Part shown: one piece after another, positions 16,230 through 60,276 of the stretch | How the letters are laid out: each line of letters begins with the position of its first letter | Numbering within the stretch: the stretch's first letter is position 1 | NCBI GenBank assembly: GCA_964448705.1 | Contig: CAYUZS010000003.1 | Coordinates: 73,384-137,383 of the forward strand | Direction: 5' to 3' | DNA: 64,000 bases | DNA from: an uncultured Gammaproteobacteria bacterium | Lineage (GTDB): Bacteria; Patescibacteriota; Microgenomatia; UBA12405 | The notes under the pieces: generated by a model | Database searches by the model: none | Told to the model about the DNA's origin: nothing | The model's input: the letters and a program-made list of their open reading frames with translations, nothing else | Made by a program: the position numbers and the translations under genes

Positions 16230-16257
16230 AGTATTATTAGGTCATCTTTAACAATCT

Positions 16258-16335
16258 GGTGGGATTAGCTCAATTGGTTAGAGCATCTGCCTGTGGAGCA
16301 GAAGGTTGCCGGTCCAAGTCCGGTATCTCACCCCA
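16258..16335 (+). tRNA. tRNA-His (anticodon GTG) with G-1 and encoded CCA
   Basis: Manual fold: G-1, acceptor GTGGGAT/ATCTCAC, anticodon arm TCTGC-CTGTGGA-GCAGA, T arm GCCGG-TCCAAGT-CCGGT (non-canonical T loop). Confidence 0.85.
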
Positions 16336-41420: not shown

Positions 41421-43297
41421 AGTTATCTTCATCGCTCACAGTCGCAGTTATCACCTGTCGTCGTCCCAAACTTCTTAAACGTTGTCTTTTTAGTTTTTTA
41501 AAACAAAAAACTGCTTTAAGAATTATTATTATTGACAACGATTATCAACAGACTTCAAAAAAAATTTGTCAATCATTCTCAAAAAAGCTGTCTTTAAAAT
41601 ACTTGGTCTGTCCGATAAAAAGTATCCCCAGGGCAAGAAGTTTAGCCATTGAATCCTGTGAAACTAATTATTTGGCTTTTATCGACGACGATTGCTGTAT
41701 CGATCGTCACTGGTCAGAAATTGCCCGGGAACTCATTTCCGCCAATCCAAACACCGCCTATTGGCAGGGACAAACTTATCCTCCCGCCAAACCTTCCTTG
41801 CTTGATTCTGCCCATTTCCAAATCTATTCCCAATGGCTGCTTCATCCCCACCAGGGATTGGATACAAAAAATATCATTATTAATTTATCTGTGGTCAAAA
41901 AATATCATCTTTCTTTTGACCCCAACTTTCCAATCTTTGAGGATATAGATTTTGGCCTTCAACTGAATCAGCATCATCTTTCCGGAATGTTTATCCCTAA
42001 ATTAATAGTCAGCCACCATGAATATATAAAATTGTTCCCATTAATCCGAAAATATTTTTATCGCGGTCAAATCAAATTTGCTATCAATCAAAAATGGGGC
42101 AATTTTGATAACTATCAGCCTACTCTCGACTTCTTTACCATCATTAAAAAATTAGCTACCAACTTTTTCAAAGCACTTCTGGAAATTTCATTTGACTCTG
42201 GTTTCAAATATGCCCAAAAGTATCAGATTCTTCCCAACGACAACCATCTTTCTATAATAAATCGCCATGACCGGGGAGCCAACCAAGAACGCCTTGAAGC
42301 CATAACTAATTTTCTCCACAAAAACAATTTTCAGGTAACCAATATTGATTCGGAAAAAATTCTTCTCGATTGCCAATTGCATCGACGTCAGTTCTTAAAA
42401 GAAAATCCCCTAGCCTACCTATTAATTCATTTATCTCTACTTAATAATCCACCTTTCAGATATTTTTTTAGCCTACTTCTTCGCGGTTATCTTCTCAATT
42501 TTTATCTTCATCGTTTGCATACCAAAAAAGTAATTTCTCAATATTCCGAAGACATTTTTGTCGCCATATATCCACACCGCTTTCAACTTATCCTTGATTT
42601 ACCGACCATTTTTTCTGAAGAATTAAAACTCAGTCACCGGCTGCCTCTACCGATTATTAATATAATAACCCGTCTGGAAAACCTCGCCTATTCCAAAGCC
42701 GATCATACTTGCTTCCATTGGTCCGGCTTTCTTAATTATGCACGTAAAATTGGAAAAAAAATTCCAAACAGTTTTATCCTCAACTGGGGGTGTAATTCAG
42801 TTTCAAAAGTAGCTGTATTTAAAAAACATCCCAAAATAATTTATCTTGGCGATTTTACTTCACCTTGGACCAATCCCTCATTACTACTCAGACTGCAGAA
42901 AACATCTTCTATCGACATTTTTAGCTATCAAACTTCATCCAAATTTAAAACCAAAGGCTATTTAAAAAATCTCCAAAAACTCAGCCTTTATCAATTTGGT
43001 CTAATAACTATCACCAATGATCCGCTCAGAAACAATGGTTTTTCTGCCAAGTACTTAAAATATCTTGAGCATGGTCTACCGGTTCTTTGCCCTGAATGGC
43101 GTCGGGATCCCCTGCTAAAACCAGCCACCATTTACTATAATGAAAGAAATTTTGTCAAACAGCTTAAAAAATATTCTCAAAAAAAACTTTGGTTAAAAAA
43201 ACACCAAGCTGCCCTAAGAATTTCCAAAAATTTAAATTGGAACAAAACTCTACTTCCATTGTTACCGAAAATTAATTCATCTAAAAATGAATATTAG
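41417..43297 (+). CDS. GT2-family glycosyltransferase fused to a ~350-aa uncharacterised C-terminal domain
   Basis: N-terminal VAVITCRRPKLL...IIIIDND...AFIDDDC (GT-A DxD). The C-terminal half was not recognised. Confidence 0.65.
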   Translation: MKLSSSLTVAVITCRRPKLLKRCLFSFLKQKTALRIIIIDNDYQQTSKKICQSFSKKLSLKYLVCPIKSIPRARSLAIESCETNYLAFIDDDCCIDRHWSEIARELISANPNTAYWQGQTYPPAKPSLLDSAHFQIYSQWLLHPHQGLDTKNIIINLSVVKKYHLSFDPNFPIFEDIDFGLQLNQHHLSGMFIPKLIVSHHEYIKLFPLIRKYFYRGQIKFAINQKWGNFDNYQPTLDFFTIIKKLATNFFKALLEISFDSGFKYAQKYQILPNDNHLSIINRHDRGANQERLEAITNFLHKNNFQVTNIDSEKILLDCQLHRRQFLKENPLAYLLIHLSLLNNPPFRYFFSLLLRGYLLNFYLHRLHTKKVISQYSEDIFVAIYPHRFQLILDLPTIFSEELKLSHRLPLPIINIITRLENLAYSKADHTCFHWSGFLNYARKIGKKIPNSFILNWGCNSVSKVAVFKKHPKIIYLGDFTSPWTNPSLLLRLQKTSSIDIFSYQTSSKFKTKGYLKNLQKLSLYQFGLITITNDPLRNNGFSAKYLKYLEHGLPVLCPEWRRDPLLKPATIYYNERNFVKQLKKYSQKKLWLKKHQAALRISKNLNWNKTLLPLLPKINSSKNEY

Positions 43298-44360
43298 TAA
43301 AAAAATTAAATCAACCGGAATCAATCTCTCCATTTGGTGGCAGAATCTTTTAATAAAAGTCTCTCTCAATCTTAATAAACCTCTAAACAAACCTACTTCC
43401 ATTACTTTTGACCTAACTCCAAATTGTGTTCTAAAATGCAAGCAATGCGATATTTGGAAAAGTCCTCCAGAAACACAACTCTCACTAAAAGAAGCTAAAA
43501 TTATCATTGACCGGCTTCACTCTTGGTTAGGTAGTTGCTACCTCTTTTTTACCGGCGGTGAACCGTTAACAAACACAGACCTACCCGAAATAATTGGTTA
43601 TGCCTACAGAAAAGGCATCCTTTCTCACATCAACAGTAATGCCGTCCTGATAGACAAGTCACTGGCAAAAAAACTCACTCTAAACCACCTTTATGCTATT
43701 TCCATCTCTCTTGATGGGGCTACAGCCAAAACTCACGATTATCTCCGTGGTGTTTCAGGAACATTCGATAAAGTCATCAAAGCTATTAATTATCTTCAAA
43801 AAACAACTCATTCTCCTAAAATTTACATCAATACAGTCATAATGAAAAATAACACTATGGAATTAGAAAAATTAATAGAACTAACCAAAAAATACCACAC
43901 TAACGGCATTATGTTTCAATGTTTACTTCCCAATCTCGGACAAAACAGTGTCAAAGCTATTTCCAAAAACAATCCTTTATGGCCAAACAAAACTAAAATT
44001 ACAGCCGTTATAAAAAGGATTATCCAAAAAACCTCTTCTGAACCTCTTATTCTAAGTTCCAAACAGGATTTGGAAACCTCTCTGAAATATTATAAAAATC
44101 CCGGACTATTTAATAAATTTGTCTGTGCCGCCGGAATAAATAATTTTATTGTTGATCATCATGGAGACGTTAGGCTTTGTTTCGACTTTCCTGCTATCGG
44201 AAATATTATCAGGGAAAACCCCCAATCTATCTGGTGGAGCCAAAAAGCTGTTACCCAGCGTCAACAAATCCGCCACTGTCAACGAAATTGCAAGCTTATT
44301 GCCTGTAACAAAGCTGATACTGCCAGAAATAAAACTGTCGCTGCTAATCTTTTTGAATAA
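43287..44360 (+). CDS. radical SAM enzyme with SPASM/twitch-like C-terminal Cys cluster
   Basis: CVLKCKQC (CxxxCxxC) at aa ~46-53. C-terminal CAAG...GDVRLC...HCQRNCKLIAC. Confidence 0.75.
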   Translation: MNISKKIKSTGINLSIWWQNLLIKVSLNLNKPLNKPTSITFDLTPNCVLKCKQCDIWKSPPETQLSLKEAKIIIDRLHSWLGSCYLFFTGGEPLTNTDLPEIIGYAYRKGILSHINSNAVLIDKSLAKKLTLNHLYAISISLDGATAKTHDYLRGVSGTFDKVIKAINYLQKTTHSPKIYINTVIMKNNTMELEKLIELTKKYHTNGIMFQCLLPNLGQNSVKAISKNNPLWPNKTKITAVIKRIIQKTSSEPLILSSKQDLETSLKYYKNPGLFNKFVCAAGINNFIVDHHGDVRLCFDFPAIGNIIRENPQSIWWSQKAVTQRQQIRHCQRNCKLIACNKADTARNKTVAANLFE

Positions 44361-45015
44361 TTCCTACTCCCGGATCCTCTAATATCTCGAATAGTTTGTA
44401 TTTTCCTGAGTCTTTAATTTCTTTCCAAAATTTTCTGGTTCCATAAAAGTTTCCATCCTTGTCCGGACTTCCGATATCATGGATCGCCAAAAATCCGCCT
44501 TTTTCCACATTCTGCCAGAACATTTCAAAATCTTTTTTCACCCCTGTATAAGAATGGTCGCCGTCAATATGAACGTAACCATATTTTATTTTTTCATTTT
44601 TTGCGTAATATTCATCTGATTTCATCACCCTCAATTTTATATACTTCTCCAAACCAAATTTTCCAAAATGTTTTTTTTCATCTACCTTCTTCCAAAAACC
44701 AACTCCTCCCCAATGTTCTCCAGCAACTTTATCATAATCATCCATATCAAATCCGGCATCAACAAAATCAACTAAACCCATCCCGTTATCTTTGCACGCC
44801 AAAGCGCATACGGCCGGAATATATCCGTATTTACTGCCAACACATAGTACCTTATCCGGTCTGATTTGCCTAATCAGTGAATAATGGATCCAGCCATAAC
44901 CTAAACCTCCCCGATTGTTATCCCAGTGATGCCAATTGTCATCTTTTGCATAATTCTCAATAAATTTCCTGACATTTTTCTTATCTATTAAATCTTTTGT
45001 CCCGCTGAATATCAT
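44344..45015 (-). CDS. class I SAM-dependent methyltransferase (Methyltransf_24/CmcI-like)
   Basis: VLCVGSKYGY...VHIDGDHSYTGVKKDFEMFWQNVEKGGFLAIHD. Confidence 0.55.
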   Translation of the reverse strand: MIFSGTKDLIDKKNVRKFIENYAKDDNWHHWDNNRGGLGYGWIHYSLIRQIRPDKVLCVGSKYGYIPAVCALACKDNGMGLVDFVDAGFDMDDYDKVAGEHWGGVGFWKKVDEKKHFGKFGLEKYIKLRVMKSDEYYAKNEKIKYGYVHIDGDHSYTGVKKDFEMFWQNVEKGGFLAIHDIGSPDKDGNFYGTRKFWKEIKDSGKYKLFEILEDPGVGIIQKD

Positions 45016-45041
45016 TCTCCATTATAATACTATCATTCTCT

Positions 45042-46196
45042 ATGCTTTCAACCTTCTTCAAATCATCTCCATCCAAACCAATCGACTTTTCTTTTTTTCC
45101 CTCCTTAAATCAAAATCTTTTTATCCATTCCACCCCTTTTTTTCTAACAAATAAATCAATTGTAAAAAATCGTTTACTAGAACTGCATCAAACAATGTCT
45201 CAATTTCACCTGGCTCAGGCAAAAATTGCCTACTCATTCAAAACCAATTACGACGTCGCCAAAAATATCAGATTTGACATGGCTGAAGTTGTTTCTCAAA
45301 GAGAATTAAAAATGTCACTCCATAATCACTACCATTATTCACAAATTATTTTTAATGGACCAAACAAAGGCAATTTTCTTCCACTTTTGTACCGTCCAAT
45401 CACTCTCAACCTTGACCATTTTTCTGAAATTGAAAATCTTCCTCCATACTCCTCAAAAATAACCGCTAAAATTGGTCTCCGTTTTAACTCACTCTCCTCA
45501 CCTAGTCGTTTTGGCTTCAATCTTGAAAACGGCCAAGCCAGCCAAGCATTTTCTCTTTTAAAACAGAAAAAATACCCCCTTTCCGGAATCCACTTTCATC
45601 TTGGCAGCGATATTCAAAACTCTGACCTCTATCAGCAATGTTCTCTGGCCATTTCTTCCTTCATCAAAAAACACCATCTCTTTGCTGACCTTGTTTATAT
45701 CGACTTTGGTGGTGGTTTTCCCTCACACGGTTTAATCCACCAAACCGACATCCAATCTTTACCAAAGATATCGAATTATATTAATAGTATCGTTCAACCA
45801 CTGTCCAAAATTGTTGATTTTTCTAAGACAGAAATTATTCTGGAACCCGGTAGATATTTAGTCGACGACTCAACTGTCATGATAACCAAAGTTCTTAGCA
45901 CTATTGAAACTAGTAACCATCAGTTAATTACTGTCGATGCTGCAAACACTATGTTGCCCTCAACATGGTATCGACGCCATCTAATCAAAAATTTATCTGC
46001 GAATAATAACTTTAAAACTATAGAAACAATTATTTATGGCAGCAGCTGCCAGGAAACAGACATTTTATATCGCGGAAAATTCCAAAAGGTTTCTATTGGA
46101 GACCTTCTTGTTTTTTATTGTGTTGGTGCCTACAATCAAAGTCAAACTTCTTCGTTTATTTTTAATAAACCCAAAACCTATTTTATATATGACTAA
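45042..46196 (+). CDS. PLP-dependent decarboxylase, Orn/DAP/Arg decarboxylase (fold III) family
   Basis: AYSFKTNYD (PLP Lys), HFHLGS, DFGGGFP, EPGRYLV and GSSCQETD. Confidence 0.75.
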   Translation: MLSTFFKSSPSKPIDFSFFPSLNQNLFIHSTPFFLTNKSIVKNRLLELHQTMSQFHLAQAKIAYSFKTNYDVAKNIRFDMAEVVSQRELKMSLHNHYHYSQIIFNGPNKGNFLPLLYRPITLNLDHFSEIENLPPYSSKITAKIGLRFNSLSSPSRFGFNLENGQASQAFSLLKQKKYPLSGIHFHLGSDIQNSDLYQQCSLAISSFIKKHHLFADLVYIDFGGGFPSHGLIHQTDIQSLPKISNYINSIVQPLSKIVDFSKTEIILEPGRYLVDDSTVMITKVLSTIETSNHQLITVDAANTMLPSTWYRRHLIKNLSANNNFKTIETIIYGSSCQETDILYRGKFQKVSIGDLLVFYCVGAYNQSQTSSFIFNKPKTYFIYD

Positions 46197-46950
46197 AAGA
46201 TTTAATCACCACTATTTTACCCTCCTCTCTGTTATGACCAAAACAGAGTTTATGAGCCGTTACAAAAGGGCTATTTTTGGTTTTCTATGGTTGTTTCTTA
46301 ACCCACTCTTTCAAATGCTAATCATCGGTACTGTCTTCTCTCACTTTATTAGTCTTCCAAACTACTATTTGTTCCTCTTTGGAGGTCTCCTTTTATGGCA
46401 GTTCTTTTCCTCCTCAATCACCAAATCAACCTATAGCTTTGTTTCTAACCGAAATCTGCTTCAAAAAACTCCTTTTCCTTTAGAAATAATCCCTATCTCT
46501 ATTATTCTTGCTGATTATATTAATCTACTCTTTTCCCTTCTGCTTTTTCTAACGACCACCGCCTTTGTAACTGGTCTCTCCTTAAAAGCTCTCTTGATTA
46601 TTCCCATTCTGCTATGGCTGCTGACTTTCTCAGTTGCTTTCTCCTTAATCACTTCTACTCTTAATGTTCGTTTCCGCGATACCAACTTTTTTGTTAACAC
46701 TCTTCTCATGCTTTGGTTTTATGCCACTCCCATCCTCTATCAAACCAACAGTCTACCTGGGTTTCTACAAAAATATCTGATTATCAATCCTTTGGCTTCA
46801 CTTTTCTCCCTATTTCATTATATTTTCTTTAATGCTCCTTTTCCAAACACTATTCTTATAATCACTAATCTTTTTACCACCATTGTAATCTTATTTTTAG
46901 GTATTTTTCTTTTCCGAAAAAATTACTCCTATTTTGTTGATTGGTTATAA
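46189..46950 (+). CDS. ABC-2 type polysaccharide/teichoic-acid exporter permease (Wzm/TagG-like)
   Basis: Start at MTKRF (ATGACTAA overlap), FMSRYKRAIFGFLWLFLNPL signature and 6 TM helices. Confidence 0.75.
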   Translation: MTKRFNHHYFTLLSVMTKTEFMSRYKRAIFGFLWLFLNPLFQMLIIGTVFSHFISLPNYYLFLFGGLLLWQFFSSSITKSTYSFVSNRNLLQKTPFPLEIIPISIILADYINLLFSLLLFLTTTAFVTGLSLKALLIIPILLWLLTFSVAFSLITSTLNVRFRDTNFFVNTLLMLWFYATPILYQTNSLPGFLQKYLIINPLASLFSLFHYIFFNAPFPNTILIITNLFTTIVILFLGIFLFRKNYSYFVDWL

Positions 46951-46954
46951 AACT

Positions 46955-47956
46955 ATGTCAAAAGTTATTAAAATAAAACATTTATCCAAAAAATATTCTC
47001 TTCATTCTTCAAAACCCACTTTGATTGAACAGTTAAACCCAAAAGATAAAATTTACTGGGCTCTTAAAGACATTAACCTTACTGTAGAATCCGGAGAACG
47101 TGTCGGTTTTTTTGGTCCAAACGGTGCTGGTAAAACTACTCTACTCAAAATAATTTCCCACATTACCACTCCTGCTTCAGGAACAGTCACCACTAGTGGA
47201 AAAATAATTTCTCTAATTGAATTAACCGCTGGTTTTGACCAAGAGCTTACCGGTTATGAAAATATCAAACTTCAATTGGCACTTATGGCCGATTTCAATC
47301 AGGACCAAACCTCTCAGGTTATTTCAGACTGTATAAATTTTTCGGAACTATCAGATTTTATTCATCAACCGCTTTATACCTATTCCTCCGGTATGATTCT
47401 TCGTCTGGCTTTTTCGATTGCAACAGTCATTCCTGCTGATATTTTCATCGTTGACGAATTTTTGGCAGTTGGGGACACCGAATTTAAAAGTAAATGTGCC
47501 GAATATTTCAATCAACTTAAACTAAGTCATAAGACTATTCTTGCCTCCTCTCACGATCTTCAATGGCTGATTTCTTTTTGTGATAAGGTATACCCTATCA
47601 ATCATGGTCGCCTTGATCGGGAAAATTTTGTCACCCCCCAACATCTGGAATTCTTTCGGCGATCCCTCCAAAAAAACAGTTCTTCTGTCACGGTTACTAC
47701 CGGCAGTATGCTACCAACTCTTAATATTGGTCAGGTTGTTCCAATTAAAAATATCTCTTTCTCTAAAATAAAACCCGGCGACATTATTGCCTTCATGTTT
47801 ACCAATTTTCCTCAACCTATTGTTCATCGGGTAATCGCCATTGGCATCAACAACCGCCAACCTATTTTAGTTACCAAAGGAGACGCCCACAGCCAACCGG
47901 ACTCCTGGATGGTCACCAAAAAAGAATATCTTGGAATTATTCAATTTAATCACTAA
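46955..47956 (+). CDS. ABC transporter ATP-binding protein (Wzt/TagH-like) fused to a C-terminal S26B (archaeal/SipW-type) signal-peptidase domain
   Basis: Walker A GPNGAGKTT, signature YSSGMILRLAF and Walker B IFIVDEFLAVGD. C-terminal ~100 aa carry TGSMLPTL, PGDIIAF, IVHRVI and TKGDAHSQPD. Confidence 0.75.
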   Translation: MSKVIKIKHLSKKYSLHSSKPTLIEQLNPKDKIYWALKDINLTVESGERVGFFGPNGAGKTTLLKIISHITTPASGTVTTSGKIISLIELTAGFDQELTGYENIKLQLALMADFNQDQTSQVISDCINFSELSDFIHQPLYTYSSGMILRLAFSIATVIPADIFIVDEFLAVGDTEFKSKCAEYFNQLKLSHKTILASSHDLQWLISFCDKVYPINHGRLDRENFVTPQHLEFFRRSLQKNSSSVTVTTGSMLPTLNIGQVVPIKNISFSKIKPGDIIAFMFTNFPQPIVHRVIAIGINNRQPILVTKGDAHSQPDSWMVTKKEYLGIIQFNH

Positions 47957-48914
47957 GTCTGTCCTTTATTTTCACATACATTGTCTCCCAAAACTCGCCT
48001 AACTTTTCAGCACTTTTCCTTATTCCTAGCCGAAGTTTCATCTCTGGAAATATCTTTTCAGTCATTTTTTCTTTCTTCCGTGAAATTTTCATTCTTTCAA
48101 AAACATCCGCCCTTTGTTTACAGGAAGAACATACCCCGCAAGGATACTTGTTTCCATTTGTACAGCTCCAAGTCTTTTCCAAAGGCAGACAATATTTTTT
48201 TCCCATTTCTACCACCTCTTCTTTTTCCATCCAGTTTCCAAACTGAGGCTCAAAAAATAGTGAATAATATTCAAAATTGGTATCGTCTCCAATCTCCCGA
48301 ATCAAATCTTGATATAACCTAATTCGGCTTAATGTCTGGCCTTTTATGGTTAACCCGTCAGTCGGTAATATCGCGGTTAAAATTGTCTTTACGGTTATAT
48401 CGTACCGGTATTTCAAATAAAAAGAATATTGTAATGCATAAATTGGGTATTGATAGAGAATATCCGGCAATAACCAAAACGACATCTTATTATTTACTAC
48501 TTGTGACAATAAATATTTATGATGAAAAAATTTTCCTGGTTTAATCATCCTGTATTCTTCCAAAATATTAGCAGGATAGGTATAAACATCCATTTCTTTT
48601 ACCGGCCAACTTAAACCCGGATATTTTTTTTGAAAATATTTATCAAAAAATTTCACCGATCTAGTGCTACCATTAAGGTTACCTCTCGTATATTTCTGTC
48701 TAATATAAACCGGATACACTTTTGTTCCATTACAAAGTAGATATTCCCATAACACAGTCGAGTCGATGCCTCCGGAAACCAACAGTATCGCCTCGTCCAA
48801 ATTCAAGTAATCTTTTAAGTTTCTATTTATTTCACTTTTATCAACTTTTTCAATCGGATTATCTTTTAACCTCTTTCGAAATTCACTTGAAGAAATCCTT
48901 GCTATTTGATTCAT
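47946..48914 (-). CDS. QueC/ExsB-like PP-loop ATPase
   Basis: PP-loop LLVSGGIDST. C-terminal QueC-type Cys cluster TWSCTNGNKYPCGVCSSCKQRADVF. Large insertions relative to QueC. Confidence 0.6.
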   Translation of the reverse strand: MNQIARISSSEFRKRLKDNPIEKVDKSEINRNLKDYLNLDEAILLVSGGIDSTVLWEYLLCNGTKVYPVYIRQKYTRGNLNGSTRSVKFFDKYFQKKYPGLSWPVKEMDVYTYPANILEEYRMIKPGKFFHHKYLLSQVVNNKMSFWLLPDILYQYPIYALQYSFYLKYRYDITVKTILTAILPTDGLTIKGQTLSRIRLYQDLIREIGDDTNFEYYSLFFEPQFGNWMEKEEVVEMGKKYCLPLEKTWSCTNGNKYPCGVCSSCKQRADVFERMKISRKKEKMTEKIFPEMKLRLGIRKSAEKLGEFWETMYVKIKDRLSD

Positions 48915-49186
48915 TTTTCTTCTCTAATTATCCCAGTTTTAATACCTTTTTTCAAAAAAGACTTCACATCTTCCCTCGCCTCATCTTTTTCCACCTTATA
49001 GTGTTTATATAAAAAACTAACCATTTCTTCGATACTTTTTGGACTAACCAACAACTTCCATAAATCCACTGCCGTCCCTGAAAGAATCGTAATTCTCGAC
49101 TCACCTTCCACCGCAATCAACACCTCATCATTTCGATACTCGGAATAACATTTCTCCACCTTAACAAAAACATCCCTATCTCTCAT
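48911..49186 (-). CDS. PqqD-family peptide-binding protein (RiPP recognition element)
   Basis: 91 aa. ILSGTAVDLWKLLVSPKSIEEMVSFLYKHYKVEKDEAREDVKSFLKKGIKTGII matches the PqqD pattern. Confidence 0.7.
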   Translation of the reverse strand: MRDRDVFVKVEKCYSEYRNDEVLIAVEGESRITILSGTAVDLWKLLVSPKSIEEMVSFLYKHYKVEKDEAREDVKSFLKKGIKTGIIREEK

Positions 49187-54545: not shown

Positions 54546-54689
54546 TTTTATTTTTAATCAATAATTTTTAATTTCTAAAAAAAGTCGAAAAAAGGAGGAG
54601 GAAAGTGAAAGTTGGGTTTGGGTTGGGTTTTTGGTGTTTCGGTTTTGTTTGCTTTTTGTTTAATCCCCCCGGAGGGGGTTTCCCCCCTC

Positions 54690-54989
54690 CTAGCCTCCAT
54701 CCAGTCCTTGCAGCCACTCCCTGACGGGGGTGACCAAGAATGCTAAATTCTCAATCGCCAGCAGGGTCAATAAAGCCATGCTGACAAACCAGATCCCCAT
54801 CATCGATAAGATAATGGCGGCACAAACCAACAACACTTCGAGTGCAGATAAGAATCTGCTACTTTCGAAGGCCGCCAATGTGGCAACAACTGCCAGTAGT
54901 ACCATCGCCAGTACGTTCGTTTCCTCCGATGTACCAATCAGGTACATCGAAAAAAACAGTAAACCCGCTTGAATTATATTTTTTAACAT
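54690..54989 (-). CDS. small 3-TM membrane protein
   Basis: Start at MLKNIIQAG, preceded by a purine-rich tract. Three hydrophobic helices and GC-enriched coding sequence. Confidence 0.45.
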   Translation of the reverse strand: MLKNIIQAGLLFFSMYLIGTSEETNVLAMVLLAVVATLAAFESSRFLSALEVLLVCAAIILSMMGIWFVSMALLTLLAIENLAFLVTPVREWLQGLDGG

Positions 54990-55245
54990 TTTAAATTCCC
55001 TTTCTTTTCCCAAAAATCCCCTTTCGAGGTTAATCCAAACCAATTCCAATATATTTTTGGCGCTGGTTTGGACCAACCTCTATCCTTTTTTCGACTTGTT
55101 AAAGTTCTCCCTCTCGGGATATAAAAAAAGCCCCACTCCACCCGGCGCATTACCGAATTTCGTTTAAGGCTTCTGATTGTTTCAAACAACTGCTTTCAGC
55201 ATCTTTCTGAAACATAAGGAAATATACACCACCAATACACACAAG

Positions 55246-56287: not shown

Positions 56288-56488
56288 TCAACCCCTTTGG
56301 ATTTTTTCTCTAGAAACAATTACTCCTCCCAGTTTCAAAGCCGCTTGAACCACTGGTCCATATCCACCTTTTACCACTGACTCCACTACTGGCATTTTGC
56401 TTTTTCCTGCCGGGAAAAAATGTCCGGCTTCAGCTTCAATTTCTGCCATTTGTCTACCAGTCGGATACATTCCTTCTTTTGGTTTCAT
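56288..56488 (-). CDS. hypothetical small protein
   Basis: 66-aa ORF, first after the structured RNA region. Confidence 0.35.
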   Translation of the reverse strand: MKPKEGMYPTGRQMAEIEAEAGHFFPAGKSKMPVVESVVKGGYGPVVQAALKLGGVIVSREKIQRG

Positions 56489-56530
56489 TTTTTTATTTGA
56501 TTAAATATTAATTTAATAAATTTCCAAACG

Positions 56531-57231
56531 ACAACCTGCAAAACAATTTTTCCACCACTAGGCGGCTCTTTTTTTTCTTTTTCCACATACTGTGGGGGAA
56601 GGCTTTCGCCCCCCCCACATATACCCTACCGTGGGGTTCCGTCAAATGACGGAGAATCCCACTGGAGCGACCCTAGTCCATTTCGGTCGGCCTCCTTTTG
56701 GGCCCCCCGAATATCAGGAGACTCACCGAGCTCTATCTCTCGGCATCGAGAAAAAAATTTGCAACGGGAGCAATGACCTTCCGGCTGCTGACACTCGCTC
56801 GGTGAAGGTGGTTGTTGAAACACTAACATTTTGCCACCTTGCCCTGGGTAACGCCTTTCCGACGTCGTAGTCGGTTTTCTTCTTTTTTCTTTTGATTTTC
56901 TTTCTGTTTCTTGTCGCTTTTACACATTTGAAGCCCCTTTCTTTTGGTCGAGGAGACCCGATCTTTTTCACCTTCCCCTATGGAAGTGAAACCTCGAAAA
57001 ATCCGTTTCTACGAACTTTTCGAGGCCCACTTCTACTCCCTGCCCGAGTTTTGGGAAGGGTTGGGAAAGAGTTAGAGAAGGGTTAATTTAGTTTTGCAGG
57101 TTGTTAAAGTGCAACCCGGCTAGGCCGGATTTGCCATCCGCCGATGAGGCGGAAGTTTCTCGACTTCAACAGTCCCGCATTCATTGTTTCCATACCGCTT
57201 TTGGTAATCGGCGGTACTGCTGTTTCGAATT
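56531..57231 (-). ncRNA. candidate large structured RNA or giant 5' leader, unclassified
   Basis: ORF-poor, GC-enriched region. A 14-bp long-range helix (56531-56544 with 57091-57104) encloses ~545 nt of hairpins. A GAAA tetraloop and G-U wobbles appear only on the minus strand. A minus-strand promoter lies at 57238-57265. Confidence 0.45.
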
Positions 57232-57237
57232 AGACTT

Positions 57238-57265
57238 ATAATATCACACTATCATGAATATTCAA
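57238..57265 (-). promoter_or_regulatory. sigma70-like promoter TTGAAT-16nt-TGaTATTAT
   Basis: Read on the minus strand. Predicted start near 57231. Confidence 0.35.
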
Positions 57266-57268
57266 TAC

Positions 57269-57295
57269 ACATAAGAGCGCATTCTGCTCTTATGT
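57269..57295. promoter_or_regulatory. perfect 10-bp inverted repeat ACATAAGAGC-N7-GCTCTTATGT (candidate operator)
   Basis: Lies between divergent transcription units. No flanking U-run on either strand. Confidence 0.4.
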
Positions 57296-57465
57296 AATTT
57301 ATGTGAGATTATACGAAAAAAATAGTTTTTATCCCCCACCAGATTCCTTACAGATTTTTCTGTTGCCTCTATAAACTTAACTCCCGTTTTCATTTTTCAG
57401 ACTAACACATTTTCTAATAATCATACAATATGAAAATAAACACCATCTTTAATATATAATTAACC

Positions 57466-59694
57466 ATGTCTTCTAATTCTGCCTTCACTTTCATGGAAGT
57501 CCGTCTTCCACAAGACAACGAAACTACTCTCGAATCCATGTCCTCTCTCTTGTCCAACTTTACTCAATTTGCCAAACTCAGTTTTTGGGAAAAATTATCC
57601 GGCAAACATTCTCTGGTAGCTTCTCTTGAAGTTGTCCTTATCAACGGTCAAATTCATTTTTATGTTGTCGTCCCCGTCCAAAATTACGATTTCTTTCGTT
57701 CCCAAATTCTCGCCCAATACCCCTCCGCCGTCATCAAAGAATCAAATAATTATTTAATTGACGCAGCAAACAATTTTTCGGAGCACAGCGAACGCGAAGT
57801 TCAATCTCCATCGAACAAGCCCGAAGGTAGCGAGCACCGCAAAAATTTGTTTGCCAGTCAATTAGCTTTAGCCCGCCCATACTCCTATCCCCTCAAAACC
57901 GCCCGTGATTTCCGAGATACCGACCCTCTCTCTTCAGTTCTGGCTCCCCTTTCCCGTTCCACTTCTTCCTCCGATTTTTTTCTCTATCAAATTTTAATCA
58001 GCAATGCTCCTAAAAATTGGCAGGGTAGTATTATTTCCGTCATTCAAAATGGAGTTTTAGTCGACAAAGAAAAAAATTTCCGTCAGGCCCATCCCGACAA
58101 ACAAGTTTTTGAAACCAAAATTCAGTTCCCCGGTCTGTTAACCCAGATCAATATTCTTTCCAATAATCCCACTCTCATCAGTTCGGTCTCCTCCTCTTTT
58201 GGAATCTACACCAGTCCTCGGGGCAATTTTATTCGTACCGTCTCTCCCGGTCTTTTTACCCGTAAAAAAATTCTCAAATCAATTGAAAATCGCCAGTTAA
58301 CCATCAACACCCAAGTTCTAAACACTGAAGAACTGGCTGTTCTTTGGCATTTTCCCAATCAACTCACCAAACTTCCCAACATCGCTTGGGGTAAAAAACT
58401 CTACGCCGATCCGCCGGAAAATCTGCCGGTAGCCACCGGTCTTAGTGATGAAGAAAAATCTCATCTCACCTTTTTTGGCAAAACAGAATTTCATAATCAG
58501 GAAACTATTTTCGGTATCAAAGAGGGTGAAGACCGCCGTCGACATACTTATATTATCGGTAAAAGTGGTACCGGAAAATCAACTTTAATTGCCAACATGG
58601 CTATTGATGACATCCGCAAGGGCCGTGGTGTCGCTATTATCGATCCTCACGGAGACCTTTGCGACAACATCCTCAACTATATTCCCGCCTCCCGCCTCAA
58701 CGATTGCTGTTATTTCAATCCCGCTGATCCCGACTATGTTTATCCTCTAAATGTTTTGGAAGCCAAAAATGAATCTCAGGCAGAACTGGTGGCTTCCGGA
58801 GTTCTTTCTATTTTCAAAAAACTTTACGGCAATTCCTGGGGTCCCCGATTGGAATATATTTTAAGAAATGCCATTCTTACCCTGGTCTTCACCCCGGGTT
58901 CGGACATGACCCATATCGTCGAGATTCTTACCAACAAAGTCTTTCGCGCCAAAGTAGTCGATCAGCTTAAAAATCAAACTCTCAAAAATTTTTGGCTCAA
59001 CGAATACAATGTCATGGATGAAAAGTTCCGGGTGGAAACAATTTCTTCGATCCTCAACAAAGTTGGACAATTTATTGCTTCATCTAATATCAGAAACACC
59101 GTTGCCCACGCTCATTCCAAAATCAATATTGAAGAAATAATGAATCAAAAAAAGATTCTTATTGCTGATTTATCCTCCGGAAAATTAGGTGAAGACAACT
59201 CTGCTCTTCTCGGCGCCATGCTGATTACTCAAATCCAGTTGGCCGCCATGAATCGGGTGTTCCAATCTCAGGACGAACGCTCTGATTTTTACCTCTATGT
59301 TGACGAGTTTCAAAATTTCGCCACCGAAGCCTTTATTAAAATTCTCTCTGAAGCCCGCAAGTTCAAACTTAATCTTATTGTCGCCAATCAGTATATGAGT
59401 CAGCTGGACCGAACCATTCAGGATGCCATTTTTGGCAACGTCGGCTCTTTCCTTTCTTTTGTCGTCGGCAACCAGGATGCTTTTATTCTTCAAAAAGAGT
59501 TTGGCACCAAATTCCCCGCCGAAGATCTGGTTAAAATCGGCAAGTACCAAATAATTTGCAAACTCAGCATTGATTCCGAAACCACCCAGCCGTTTTATGC
59601 CACCACCCTGCCTCCTCTGGATTGCAAAAACCAACAAAAGGATAAACTGATCAAAGTTTCTCAGGAACGTTGGGGAAAGAAAAAGAATTCATAG
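57466..59694 (+). CDS. TraD/VirD4-like (T4SS coupling protein / FtsK-HerA superfamily) ATPase with ~340-aa uncharacterised N-terminal domain
   Basis: Walker A IIGKSGTGKST then AIIDPHGDL, Walker B FYLYVDEFQNF and LIVANQYMSQL. No TM helices seen. Confidence 0.75.
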   Translation: MSSNSAFTFMEVRLPQDNETTLESMSSLLSNFTQFAKLSFWEKLSGKHSLVASLEVVLINGQIHFYVVVPVQNYDFFRSQILAQYPSAVIKESNNYLIDAANNFSEHSEREVQSPSNKPEGSEHRKNLFASQLALARPYSYPLKTARDFRDTDPLSSVLAPLSRSTSSSDFFLYQILISNAPKNWQGSIISVIQNGVLVDKEKNFRQAHPDKQVFETKIQFPGLLTQINILSNNPTLISSVSSSFGIYTSPRGNFIRTVSPGLFTRKKILKSIENRQLTINTQVLNTEELAVLWHFPNQLTKLPNIAWGKKLYADPPENLPVATGLSDEEKSHLTFFGKTEFHNQETIFGIKEGEDRRRHTYIIGKSGTGKSTLIANMAIDDIRKGRGVAIIDPHGDLCDNILNYIPASRLNDCCYFNPADPDYVYPLNVLEAKNESQAELVASGVLSIFKKLYGNSWGPRLEYILRNAILTLVFTPGSDMTHIVEILTNKVFRAKVVDQLKNQTLKNFWLNEYNVMDEKFRVETISSILNKVGQFIASSNIRNTVAHAHSKINIEEIMNQKKILIADLSSGKLGEDNSALLGAMLITQIQLAAMNRVFQSQDERSDFYLYVDEFQNFATEAFIKILSEARKFKLNLIVANQYMSQLDRTIQDAIFGNVGSFLSFVVGNQDAFILQKEFGTKFPAEDLVKIGKYQIICKLSIDSETTQPFYATTLPPLDCKNQQKDKLIKVSQERWGKKKNS

Positions 59695-60057: not shown

Positions 60058-60276
60058 ATGGCCACTTCCAATGCTGAACTTATAGAAAGATTAAATCAAA
60101 CCGGTTCACATATTGTCAATTCTAAAAAAGAAGCCTGTTCTATTTGTCCTTCACTTCCTATTTGCCGTAAGGTTCGTTCCTGTGAACATGTCAGAATTGA
60201 ACCTGGTGATCGAACATGTCTTGAAACTTTAAAATCCGAAGAAGAAACTTCACTTTATAAAAAAATAAAACGCTAG
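60058..60276 (+). CDS. hypothetical small Cys-motif protein
   Basis: 72 aa with CSICPSLPIC (C-x2-C-x5-C). Confidence 0.35.
   Translation: MATSNAELIERLNQTGSHIVNSKKEACSICPSLPICRKVRSCEHVRIEPGDRTCLETLKSEEETSLYKKIKR

Follow-up and report, generated by a model that had tools for sequence, protein, structure and literature searches.

The window analysed here is a stretch of 64,000 nucleotides (nt) from a Candidatus Shapirobacteria genome (contig CAYUZS010000003.1), and all coordinates are window positions. We describe a region of it, at 56500-57260, that forms the 5' portion of a candidate polycistronic mRNA on the minus strand and lies beside a divergently transcribed ATPase gene. A sequence-only reading of this DNA had taken the region for a single non-coding RNA of ~575-700 nt of the OLE/GOLLD/ROOL class. 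We are highly confident of a different architecture: a structured mRNA with embedded genes, bracketed by a conserved long-range helix. The 5' arm of this helix directly follows a boxA-like element, and the arrangement is repeated within the operon. The explanation that we favour, with some reservation, is that these are boxA and leader-trailer modules, similar to those of rRNA operons, that would loop out, insulate and probably process small-protein cistrons. The elements of the first module are listed below in the order in which they would be transcribed, from the promoter to the next cistron. Open reading frames are abbreviated as ORF and Shine-Dalgarno sequences as SD.

57238-57265, minus strand: promoter-like site with a -35 TTGAAT, a 16-nt spacer and an extended -10 TGaTATTAT
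57159-57232, minus strand: type-1 leader motif of ~75 nt, made up of AAUUCGAAACAGCAG, the P2 hairpin, UAYGGAAACNGAGAAU, an optional hairpin and GCGGR-YUGUUG
57111-57152, minus strand: two variable hairpins (57152-57138 and 57134-57111), in the position that boxB occupies in rRNA leaders
57101-57112, minus strand: boxA-like element GCACUUUAACAA, matching 10/11 of GYUCUUUAANA and 12/13 of the E. coli rrn UGCUCUUUAACAA
57091-57104, minus strand: 5' arm of the long-range helix, ACAACCUGCAAAAC, pairing with 56544-56531 over 14 bp
57046-57090, minus strand: C-rich, G-free tract (18 C and 0 G in 45 nt)
56969-57060, minus strand: three leader hairpins, Hb (57060-57038), H2 (57030-56986) and H3 (56988-56969), of which Hb and H3 were compared by eye
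56823-56927, minus strand: ORF1, 34 aa, Lys/Arg-rich, MCKSDKKQKENQKKK..., with AAAGGGG upstream
56626-56829, minus strand: ORF2, 67 aa, MLVFQQPPSPSECQQPEGHCSRCKFFSRCREI...SLGSLQWD
56552-56618, minus strand: 3' untranslated part of the cassette, with a GAAA-capped GC hairpin (56618-56592), an A-rich spacer and a small hairpin, GCCGCCUAGUGGUGG (56566-56552)
56531-56544, minus strand: 3' arm of the long-range helix, GUUUUGCAGGUUGU, pairing with 57104-57091
56489-56530, minus strand: AU-rich leader without SD, preceding ORF3
56288-56488, minus strand: ORF3, 66 aa, the next cistron, after which a 344/357-aa gene follows

The divergent ATPase gene (57466-59694, 742 aa) is VirD4/TrwB-like, with matches to the Pfam families TrwB_AAD_bind, DUF87 and DUF8128. 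It was the only one to match Pfam, where no family was found for the flanking operon proteins, ORF1, ORF2 or the 99-aa protein of the second module described below. A homologue search with the neighbouring 357-aa ORFan returned two proteins only, which is useless for sampling, and the ATPase, which is 70-82% identical across Candidatus Shapirobacteria, was therefore used as bait. Scanning genomes with it gave 76 loci, labelled L001 and so on, L001 being the copy of the present contig. Iterated nhmmer searches with the region then found homologous DNA 5' of the ATPase, on the opposite strand, in ~20 of these 76 loci.

The helix that the sequence-only reading had treated as the key feature lies exactly where it was placed, with ACAACCTGCAAAAC at 56531-56544 and GTTTTGCAGGTTGT at 57091-57104. 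Locus after locus, a conserved UUAACAA is followed by an arm that has a perfect partner 450-1050 nt downstream, while the paired sequences themselves are specific to the locus (ACCUGCGUAUUGCUUA / UAAGCAAUACGCAGGU in L012, ACAAUCCGCAAAAUAC / GUAUUUUGCGGAUUGU in L037, CUUGC / GCAAG in L041 and AACAACCGACAGAGG / CCUCUGUCGGUUGUU in L033). When 24 loci were aligned without gaps, 82.5% of the helix cells were paired, compared with 64% after column shuffling and ~40% in slid registers. Sixteen of the 20 pairs have changed on both sides, no locus of the 24 has a mismatch among the ten central pairs, and the covariation score of 0.514 (versus 0.159) was reached by none of 500 shuffles. Because the 3' arms of this alignment had been picked by complementarity, the search was repeated without any motif. 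Inverted repeats of at least 13 Watson-Crick bp, spaced by 250-1500 nt, were found in 26 of 53 upstream regions as against 1 of 53 shuffled ones, and nearly all of them start right after (G)UUCUUUAACAA. The internal non-Watson-Crick pairs of the helices comprise seven G-U, no A-C and three others on the operon strand, a pattern that favours an RNA helix of the sense strand over a DNA repeat. Compensatory change is also abundant in hairpin H2, where RNAalifold predicted 22 pairs over 10 loci, 15 of them with compensatory changes.

The same earlier reading had described the region as rich in G+C, heavily base-paired and transcribed from the minus strand, and it was right on each of these counts. 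G+C is 0.455-0.565 over 56500-56899 and 0.30-0.41 in the flanks. The 761 nt of 56500-57260 fold at -273.2 kcal/mol on the minus strand, far better than shuffled controls (-215 +/- 5.8; z = -9.97), compared with -258.5 kcal/mol and z = -4.79 on the plus strand. For the untranslated leader alone (57232-56928), z is -6.5 on the minus strand and -3.2 on the plus strand. The minimum-energy fold contains the long-range helix together with the hairpins that had been named, at 57193-57216, 57138-57152, 57111-57134, 56986-57030, 56969-56988 and 56592-56618, and the pair 56805-56811/56834-56840. This last pairs the SD of ORF2 with the Pro-Pro codons of the same gene, and a further hairpin named there, 56868-56883, falls within ORF1.

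At gathering score, cmscan returned two tRNAs from the whole window and nothing else. Even at E <= 10, the only Rfam hits over 56300-57500 were mir-4510, Pseudomon-groES and SAM-SAH, all of them at chance level. ARAGORN found no transfer-messenger RNA (tmRNA), and the covariance models of the large RNAs OLE, GOLLD, ROOL, HEARO and raiA, as well as 6S RNA, gave no match. The signatures of RNase P, tmRNA and the signal recognition particle RNA, which had been sought in vain by eye, are thus absent from these searches too. What stands of the original claim is a conserved structured RNA that is new to Rfam.

The idea that the region holds no credible ORF has to be given up. The minus strand carries ORF2 and, with its stop overlapping the ORF2 start, ORF1, so that ~300 of the ~700 nt are coding. 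Neither is on record as a called gene for this genome, which is why no gene had been seen. ORF2 has a four-Cys pattern, ..P.P.EC..P...C..C.FF..CRE..SLGSLQW. tblastn found it at the equivalent position in L079 (E = 1e-15), L046, L056, L037, L069, L016, L041 and L017, and an iterated search over all small ORFs of the loci gathered 18 ORFs with 15 distinct sequences (E down to 1e-26), the family being conserved at at least 15 loci. One Pro and four Cys are invariant across ten aligned homologues, and the proportion of nonsynonymous differences (pN, 0.38-0.65) is lower than that of synonymous differences (pS, 0.62-0.96) in 45 of 45 pairs. By these patterns of sequence conservation, ORF2 is a protein-coding gene. 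An alignment of the window with L005, L056 and L041 contains some stretches that are near-invariant in nucleotides and one that is conserved only as protein; between the window and L005, ORF2 is far more diverged than the adjoining leader.

In the same alignment, the ORF1 copy of the close relative L005 is conserved and differs by a 3-nt indel. Counterparts that begin with 'MC', each with a strong SD, are present in L056, L016, L079 and L046, and one is also listed for L005. More generally, the interior of the bracket varies from locus to locus and consists of a cassette of 1-3 small ORFs with SD. The upstream regions of all homologous loci are without long ORFs and contain intact small ones instead, which speaks against a decayed protein gene spanning the region. 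A stable hairpin after the last small ORF and a small hairpin before the 3' arm recur, with other sequences, in most loci.

The strong SDs of the small ORFs inside the brackets set them apart from the larger cistrons that follow the 3' arms. The latter (ORF3 and the 381-aa gene after the second module) have AU-rich leaders (56489-56530 and 54546-54583) and no SD, and the same is seen in many loci. Small Cys-rich genes also occur on the other side of the ATPase: a 72-aa Cys-rich ORF lies downstream of it at 60058-60276 on the plus strand, and members of the ORF2 family are found downstream of the ATPase instead of upstream in L023 (8586-8786) and L024 (8385-8570), again on the plus strand. The small Cys proteins seem to move around the ATPase locus.

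The boxA-like GCACUUUAACAA directly precedes the 5' arm, and relatives carry GUUCUUUAACAA there. The boxA working consensus is GYTCTTTAANA (PMC5725501), and the E. coli rrn boxA with its spacer reads CACugcucuuuaacaauuua (PMC2724277). Two elements of the window match GYUCUUUAANA, GCACUUUAACA at 10/11 and GAACUUUAACA at 9/11 positions, this being a published consensus that may not be that of the host. In the Shapirobacteria loci, exact GYTCTTTAANA occurs 25 times on the operon strand, where 3.0 occurrences are expected from base composition, and 3 times on the other strand, where 4.6 are expected. Immediately behind 19 of these 25 matches comes an arm that pairs with a distal partner over at least 11 bp. 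Modules that combine a boxA core with a bracket number 34 on the operon strand versus 3 on the other, and the helix begins 2-9 nt beyond the C of CUUU in almost every one of the 34. They also occur in tandem: L047 has four and L033 three, and several further loci have two.

The window itself has a second module, ~2 kb downstream of the first:

54584-55119, minus strand: second module, G+C-rich and with no called gene, closed by a 13-15-bp long-range helix
Start of module 2, minus strand: hairpin 55119-55108, boxA-like GAACUUUAACAA at 55107-55096 and 5' arm at 55095-55083
Middle of module 2, minus strand: long hairpin 55080-55026, then an SD and a 99-aa ORF at 54989-54690
End of module 2, minus strand: GAAA hairpin 54690-54671, C-rich and G-poor spacer 54664-54600 and 3' arm at 54596-54584

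An AU-rich leader without SD follows the 3' arm and leads into the 381-aa gene. The 700 nt of 55245-54546 fold with z = -8.05. By eye, the 99-aa ORF has three hydrophobic, membrane-like stretches, and there is no gene call at this place in L001. In the second module of L002 the RNA parts are visibly well kept, and the enclosed 99-aa protein cannot be aligned (30% over 56 aa, E = 0.45). There are also hints of boxA-like sequences beside tRNA genes: boxA-like CAUCUUUAACAAUCU lies at 16243-16257 on the plus strand of the window, preceded by a TATTAT -10 box and followed by the mature 5' end of tRNA-His (16259-16335), and the tRNA-Asn leaders of L019, L031 and L046 contain C(A/C)CUUUUGAAAAUUU (CUUUUGAAAA-type).

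The promoter that had been proposed for the region, TTGAAT-16-TG-n-TATTAT at 57265-57238 on the minus strand, was recovered by a scan, and the transcript probably starts near 57232. Most type-1 loci have a TGTGATATTAT box at this spacing from the leader, and a few have variants of it. Within the type-1 leader, P1 pairs AUUCGAAACAG with CUGUU..UCGA, P2 is the hairpin 57216-57193, and the junctions CAG / UAYGGAAACNGAGAAU / GCGGR are near-invariant. Since MAFFT alignments of full leaders misregistered P1 between subtypes, a covariance model built from one subtype was used instead. This model, R1, scores the window leader at 92.3 bits and finds 19 loci with one copy each; no further type-1 copies were found in the window and 88 sources. 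A tightened DNA pattern added 13 genuine metagenome loci, all of which have the leader directly behind an extended -10 box of the TGTGATATTAT type. A loose first version of the pattern had been discarded, as 14 of its 14 IMG/VR matches were chance hits inside phage genes; blastn of the region against phage records gave no match.

In the type-1 stems, 91.7% of cells pair, compared with 22-37% when the partners are slid. By eye, compensatory variation is seen in the distal part of P2 and in the optional stem, which is present as an extra stem in L013, L017, L103 and L110. The same holds for the variable-hairpin stems in L105 and L107, where CCGGCC/GCCGGG is replaced by CUGGC/GCCAG and CUGACG/CGUCAG. 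The type-1 leader has no Rfam match and is a previously undescribed motif, a new candidate family of cis-regulatory RNA. In other loci, unrelated leaders, types 2 and 3, precede the same boxA-like motif and arm. At 415-488 of L104 (identical in L112), a type-1 leader leads directly to a small hairpin and a 66-aa ORF, with neither boxA nor arm to be recognised, so that the leader motif can occur without a bracket.

Some other structures around the module deserve mention. In the type-2 loci L019 and L029, compared with L079, L037 and L069, a long tract rich in U and G comes after the ORF2 hairpin and before the 3' arm, giving the hairpin the look of a true intrinsic terminator; type-1 loci have an A-rich spacer there instead. 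The idea that helix and U-tract together form a long-range terminator was rejected, since it is only in the U-rich type-2 loci that a U-tract comes after the 3' arm. The type-2 hairpins after the arm in L046, L029, L016 and L020 share CCCGAUGAG...CUGAUYGGG around an inner stem and look faintly like a box C/D K-turn, a reading that was dropped as unsupported. The GAAA hairpin was considered as domain V of a group II intron and rejected by eye, with no Rfam match. Between the divergent promoters lies an 11-bp hairpin (57269-57295, ACATAAGAGCGCATTCTGCTCTTATGT) that resembles a terminator on the plus strand and has a counterpart of similar sequence at this position in L005; it is possibly an operator, or an element of the ATPase 5' untranslated region (UTR).

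boxA and leader-trailer helices are textbook features of rRNA operons. There, boxA lies just upstream of the leader strand of the leader-trailer helix that holds the RNase III site, and in the current model it stays on NusB and the polymerase while the nascent rRNA loops out, until the trailer emerges and pairs with the leader (PMC10250234). Compared with the E. coli rrn and rrnTAC leaders (PMC10250234, PMC2724277), the modules share a boxA (UGCUCUUUAACAA there; GCACUUUAACAA or GUUCUUUAACAA here) with a hairpin just upstream of it, and a long-range helix with its 5' strand behind boxA and its 3' strand beyond the enclosed RNA. Further likenesses are the repetition of the unit within the operon (16S and 23S there; 2-4 modules here) and flanks that vary in sequence while pairing is conserved. 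The differences are that our modules enclose translated small-protein cistrons and untranslated structure, not rRNA, and that the helices are 11-24 bp instead of 27-44 bp long and start 2-9 nt after CUUU instead of ~18 nt after boxA.

Outside rRNA operons, boxA has been described in the suhB 5' UTR, in the leaders of CRISPR arrays and with a ParE-like toxin (PMC5725501, PMC7665894), and it protects other long untranslated transcripts from Rho (PMC7665894, PMC5725501). These cases resemble the present one in that the transcript is untranslated over long stretches and has a boxA-like element close to its start, and in the proposed control of Rho. They differ in that their boxA is single and has no leader-trailer helix, whereas here it is coupled to a covarying bracket and repeated in the operon. 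What is new is the boxA and leader-trailer module around small-protein cistrons, the same layout being already known from rRNA operons; the literature that we searched contained no description of a boxA-plus-bracket layout around small-protein cistrons.

We propose Nus antitermination with closure of the bracket because boxA abuts the 5' arm, a C-rich and G-free tract and 300 nt of untranslated structure follow, the 3' arm is distal and the whole is repeated. By its base composition, the tract at 57046-57090 resembles a Rho-loading (rut) site. By analogy with rRNA operons, NusB/NusE would bind boxA on the nascent RNA, and the polymerase so modified would resist Rho over the long untranslated, structured stretches. 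It would also hold the 5' arm near the RNA exit, so that the cassette would loop out and the helix would close once the 3' arm had been made. The closed helix would insulate the cassette, and RNase III would be the enzyme that probably cuts it, the outcome being that the small proteins would have a stable mRNA of their own, distinct from that of the larger genes downstream. We lean slightly towards boxA and Nus factors being involved in this way, and put forward cleavage of the bracket helix by RNase III only tentatively.

The first module may in addition be switched. The leader strand GCGGGACUGUUGAAG (B) could pair either with the 5' end of the leader, forming P1 (A), or with boxA and the 5' arm (C), which in turn is the partner of the 3' arm (D). 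When the leader is folded alone, GCGGG..UGUUGAAGU pairs with ACUUUAACA.CCUGC and hides boxA and the arm; the full-length fold, with the 3' arm, has P1 and the long-range helix. Duplex energies are -19 to -25 kcal/mol for C:D, -6 to -19 kcal/mol for B:C and ~-10 kcal/mol for A:B. The B:C duplex is better than -11 kcal/mol in 13 of 14 leaders, shuffled sequences giving ~-7, and between the window and L005 it has changed compensatorily from GAAG/CUUU to GAUG/CAUU. Judging from these predicted folds, a competition among three strands could gate access to boxA.

Several other explanations were weighed against boxA modules of this kind. In size, G+C enrichment within an AT-rich genome, number of hairpins and folding energy, the region does resemble OLE, GOLLD, ROOL, HEARO and raiA RNAs, and strong z-scores, several covarying helices and a public annotation that calls no gene here are all compatible with a free-standing giant structured RNA of ~575-700 nt whose fold is the product. 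This reading is largely refuted, and we give it hardly any credence: a conserved gene and a second small ORF occupy ~300 nt, conservation between loci does not extend to the interior, whose small ORFs differ, no model of a large RNA matches even at E <= 10, and instead of a terminator after the 3' arm there is the next cistron of the operon mRNA within ~40 nt. The fallback that had been offered with it, a giant cis-regulatory leader of the downstream operon, comes closer to the evidence, although it missed the embedded genes, the boxA-like element and the module 2 kb downstream. Perfect inverted repeats of 11-19 bp that flank segments of 450-1050 bp with variable gene content might instead be a feature of the DNA, such as an inverton, an element like a miniature inverted-repeat transposable element (MITE) or a recombining cassette, and whole-cassette exchange would give arms that differ between loci. 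Such an origin is very improbable given the seven internal G-U and zero A-C pairs on the sense strand, an outer motif that is found on the 5' arm only in many loci (L012, L014, L056 and L102), the location of the ORF2-family genes and modules upstream of the ATPase all on the operon strand, the lack of a recombinase among the neighbouring genes and the fixed synteny.

Two further explanations keep the RNA helix and dispense with Nus factors; both seem unlikely to us, though less so than the two above. One is a riboswitch or protein-controlled attenuator, in which the type-1 leader is the sensor, the helix is a remote expression platform for ORF3 and the genes downstream, and CUUUAACAA is a pairing partner only. 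It would account for near-invariant junction nucleotides that pairing does not explain, for the optional extra stem of L013, L017, L103 and L110, for a leader motif that occurs once per locus and always right after the promoter, and for pairings A:B, B:C and C:D that are mutually exclusive. Conserved junctions, an optional stem and a strand with two partners also recall attenuators of the trp type (1:2 / 2:3 / 3:4), but there is no known aptamer class here, the third pairing is 570 nt away, and neither a terminator nor a sequestered ribosome-binding site is seen, the 3' arm having no consistent U-tract and no overlap with a ribosome-binding site. Moreover, modules 2 to 4 have boxA and bracket without a type-1 leader, other loci place unrelated leaders of types 2 and 3 ahead of the same boxA and arm, the motif coincides with the published boxA consensus at far more sites than chance predicts, and a gene content of small ORFan proteins suggests no ligand. 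The other explanation is a bracket helix that acts on the mRNA alone, its likeness to boxA being coincidental; pairing of the ends could confer stability, offer an RNase Y or RNase E site, or bring cistrons together. Helix and stable terminal hairpins would protect a processed cassette, the fast-evolving enclosed proteins (ORF2 and the 99-aa protein) could need a level other than that of the large proteins, and the boxA-like elements of the window are imperfect. Segmental mRNA processing for differential expression is known from pilus and other operons, for example papBA. There, as here, the segment that encodes a small and probably abundant protein has terminal structures that stabilise it and lies within an operon of larger proteins; those systems use RNase E sites and local hairpins, with no boxA-linked long-range helix. 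Coincidence is hard to reconcile with an exact 11-nt boxA consensus in half of the modules, with the boxA-like CAUCUUUAACAAUCU directly before tRNA-His in the window, and with a boxA beside a leader-trailer helix, which is exactly the juxtaposition of rRNA operons.

We therefore return to boxA and leader-trailer modules as the best explanation, against which a number of observations also weigh. The boxA-like elements of the window deviate at positions 2-3, with GCA and GAA in place of GYU, and module 2 of L002 has CCUUAACAA, in which a position of the U-run is changed. rRNA genes were sought in the sampled loci for comparison of their boxA, and none are present. Bracket helices of 11-24 bp are short for RNase III, the E. 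coli 16S helix needing >17 bp (PMC10250234), and they begin within the 3' part (ACAA) of the extended boxA, whereas E. coli boxC lies 18-19 nt downstream. The choice of 3' arms by complementarity inflated the pairing measured in the 24-locus alignment, and cassettes exchanged as a whole, along with both of their arms, may account for part of the covariation in place of stepwise compensation. In the leader, P1 and P2 show two double changes only, because its sequence is near-invariant.

At lower window coordinates, the genes at 43287-49186 look by eye like a cluster of the peptide-modification type, with a radical-SAM-like CxxxCxxC, a methyltransferase-like gene, an ABC transporter pair, a PP-loop (SGGxDS) ATPase and a 91-aa PqqD-like ORF.

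A far-reaching version of our proposal, which we offer as speculation and think unlikely to hold in full, is that Shapirobacteria have moved the logic of rRNA maturation (boxA tether, looping, helix closure and release by RNase III) to mRNA. Two to four modules beside a VirD4-like ATPase would then each release a stable mRNA for a fast-evolving small protein, some of these apparently membrane proteins, and the type-1 leader would be a new sensor RNA that gates the first module by covering or uncovering boxA and the 5' arm, which would make processive antitermination a regulated step.

It is only recently that boxA, by itself, has been found outside rRNA operons, in a small number of transcripts that include suhB and CRISPR arrays. 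If the explanation that we favour is true, the Nus and RNA-chaperone machinery would be usable to sculpt mRNAs, and there would be a mechanism for differential expression within operons of the candidate phyla radiation (CPR), whose regulation is almost unknown. It would also flag unannotated, fast-evolving small proteins beside a conserved secretion-type ATPase. G+C-rich islands in these genomes that appear to be free of ORFs can hide small genes missed by gene callers.

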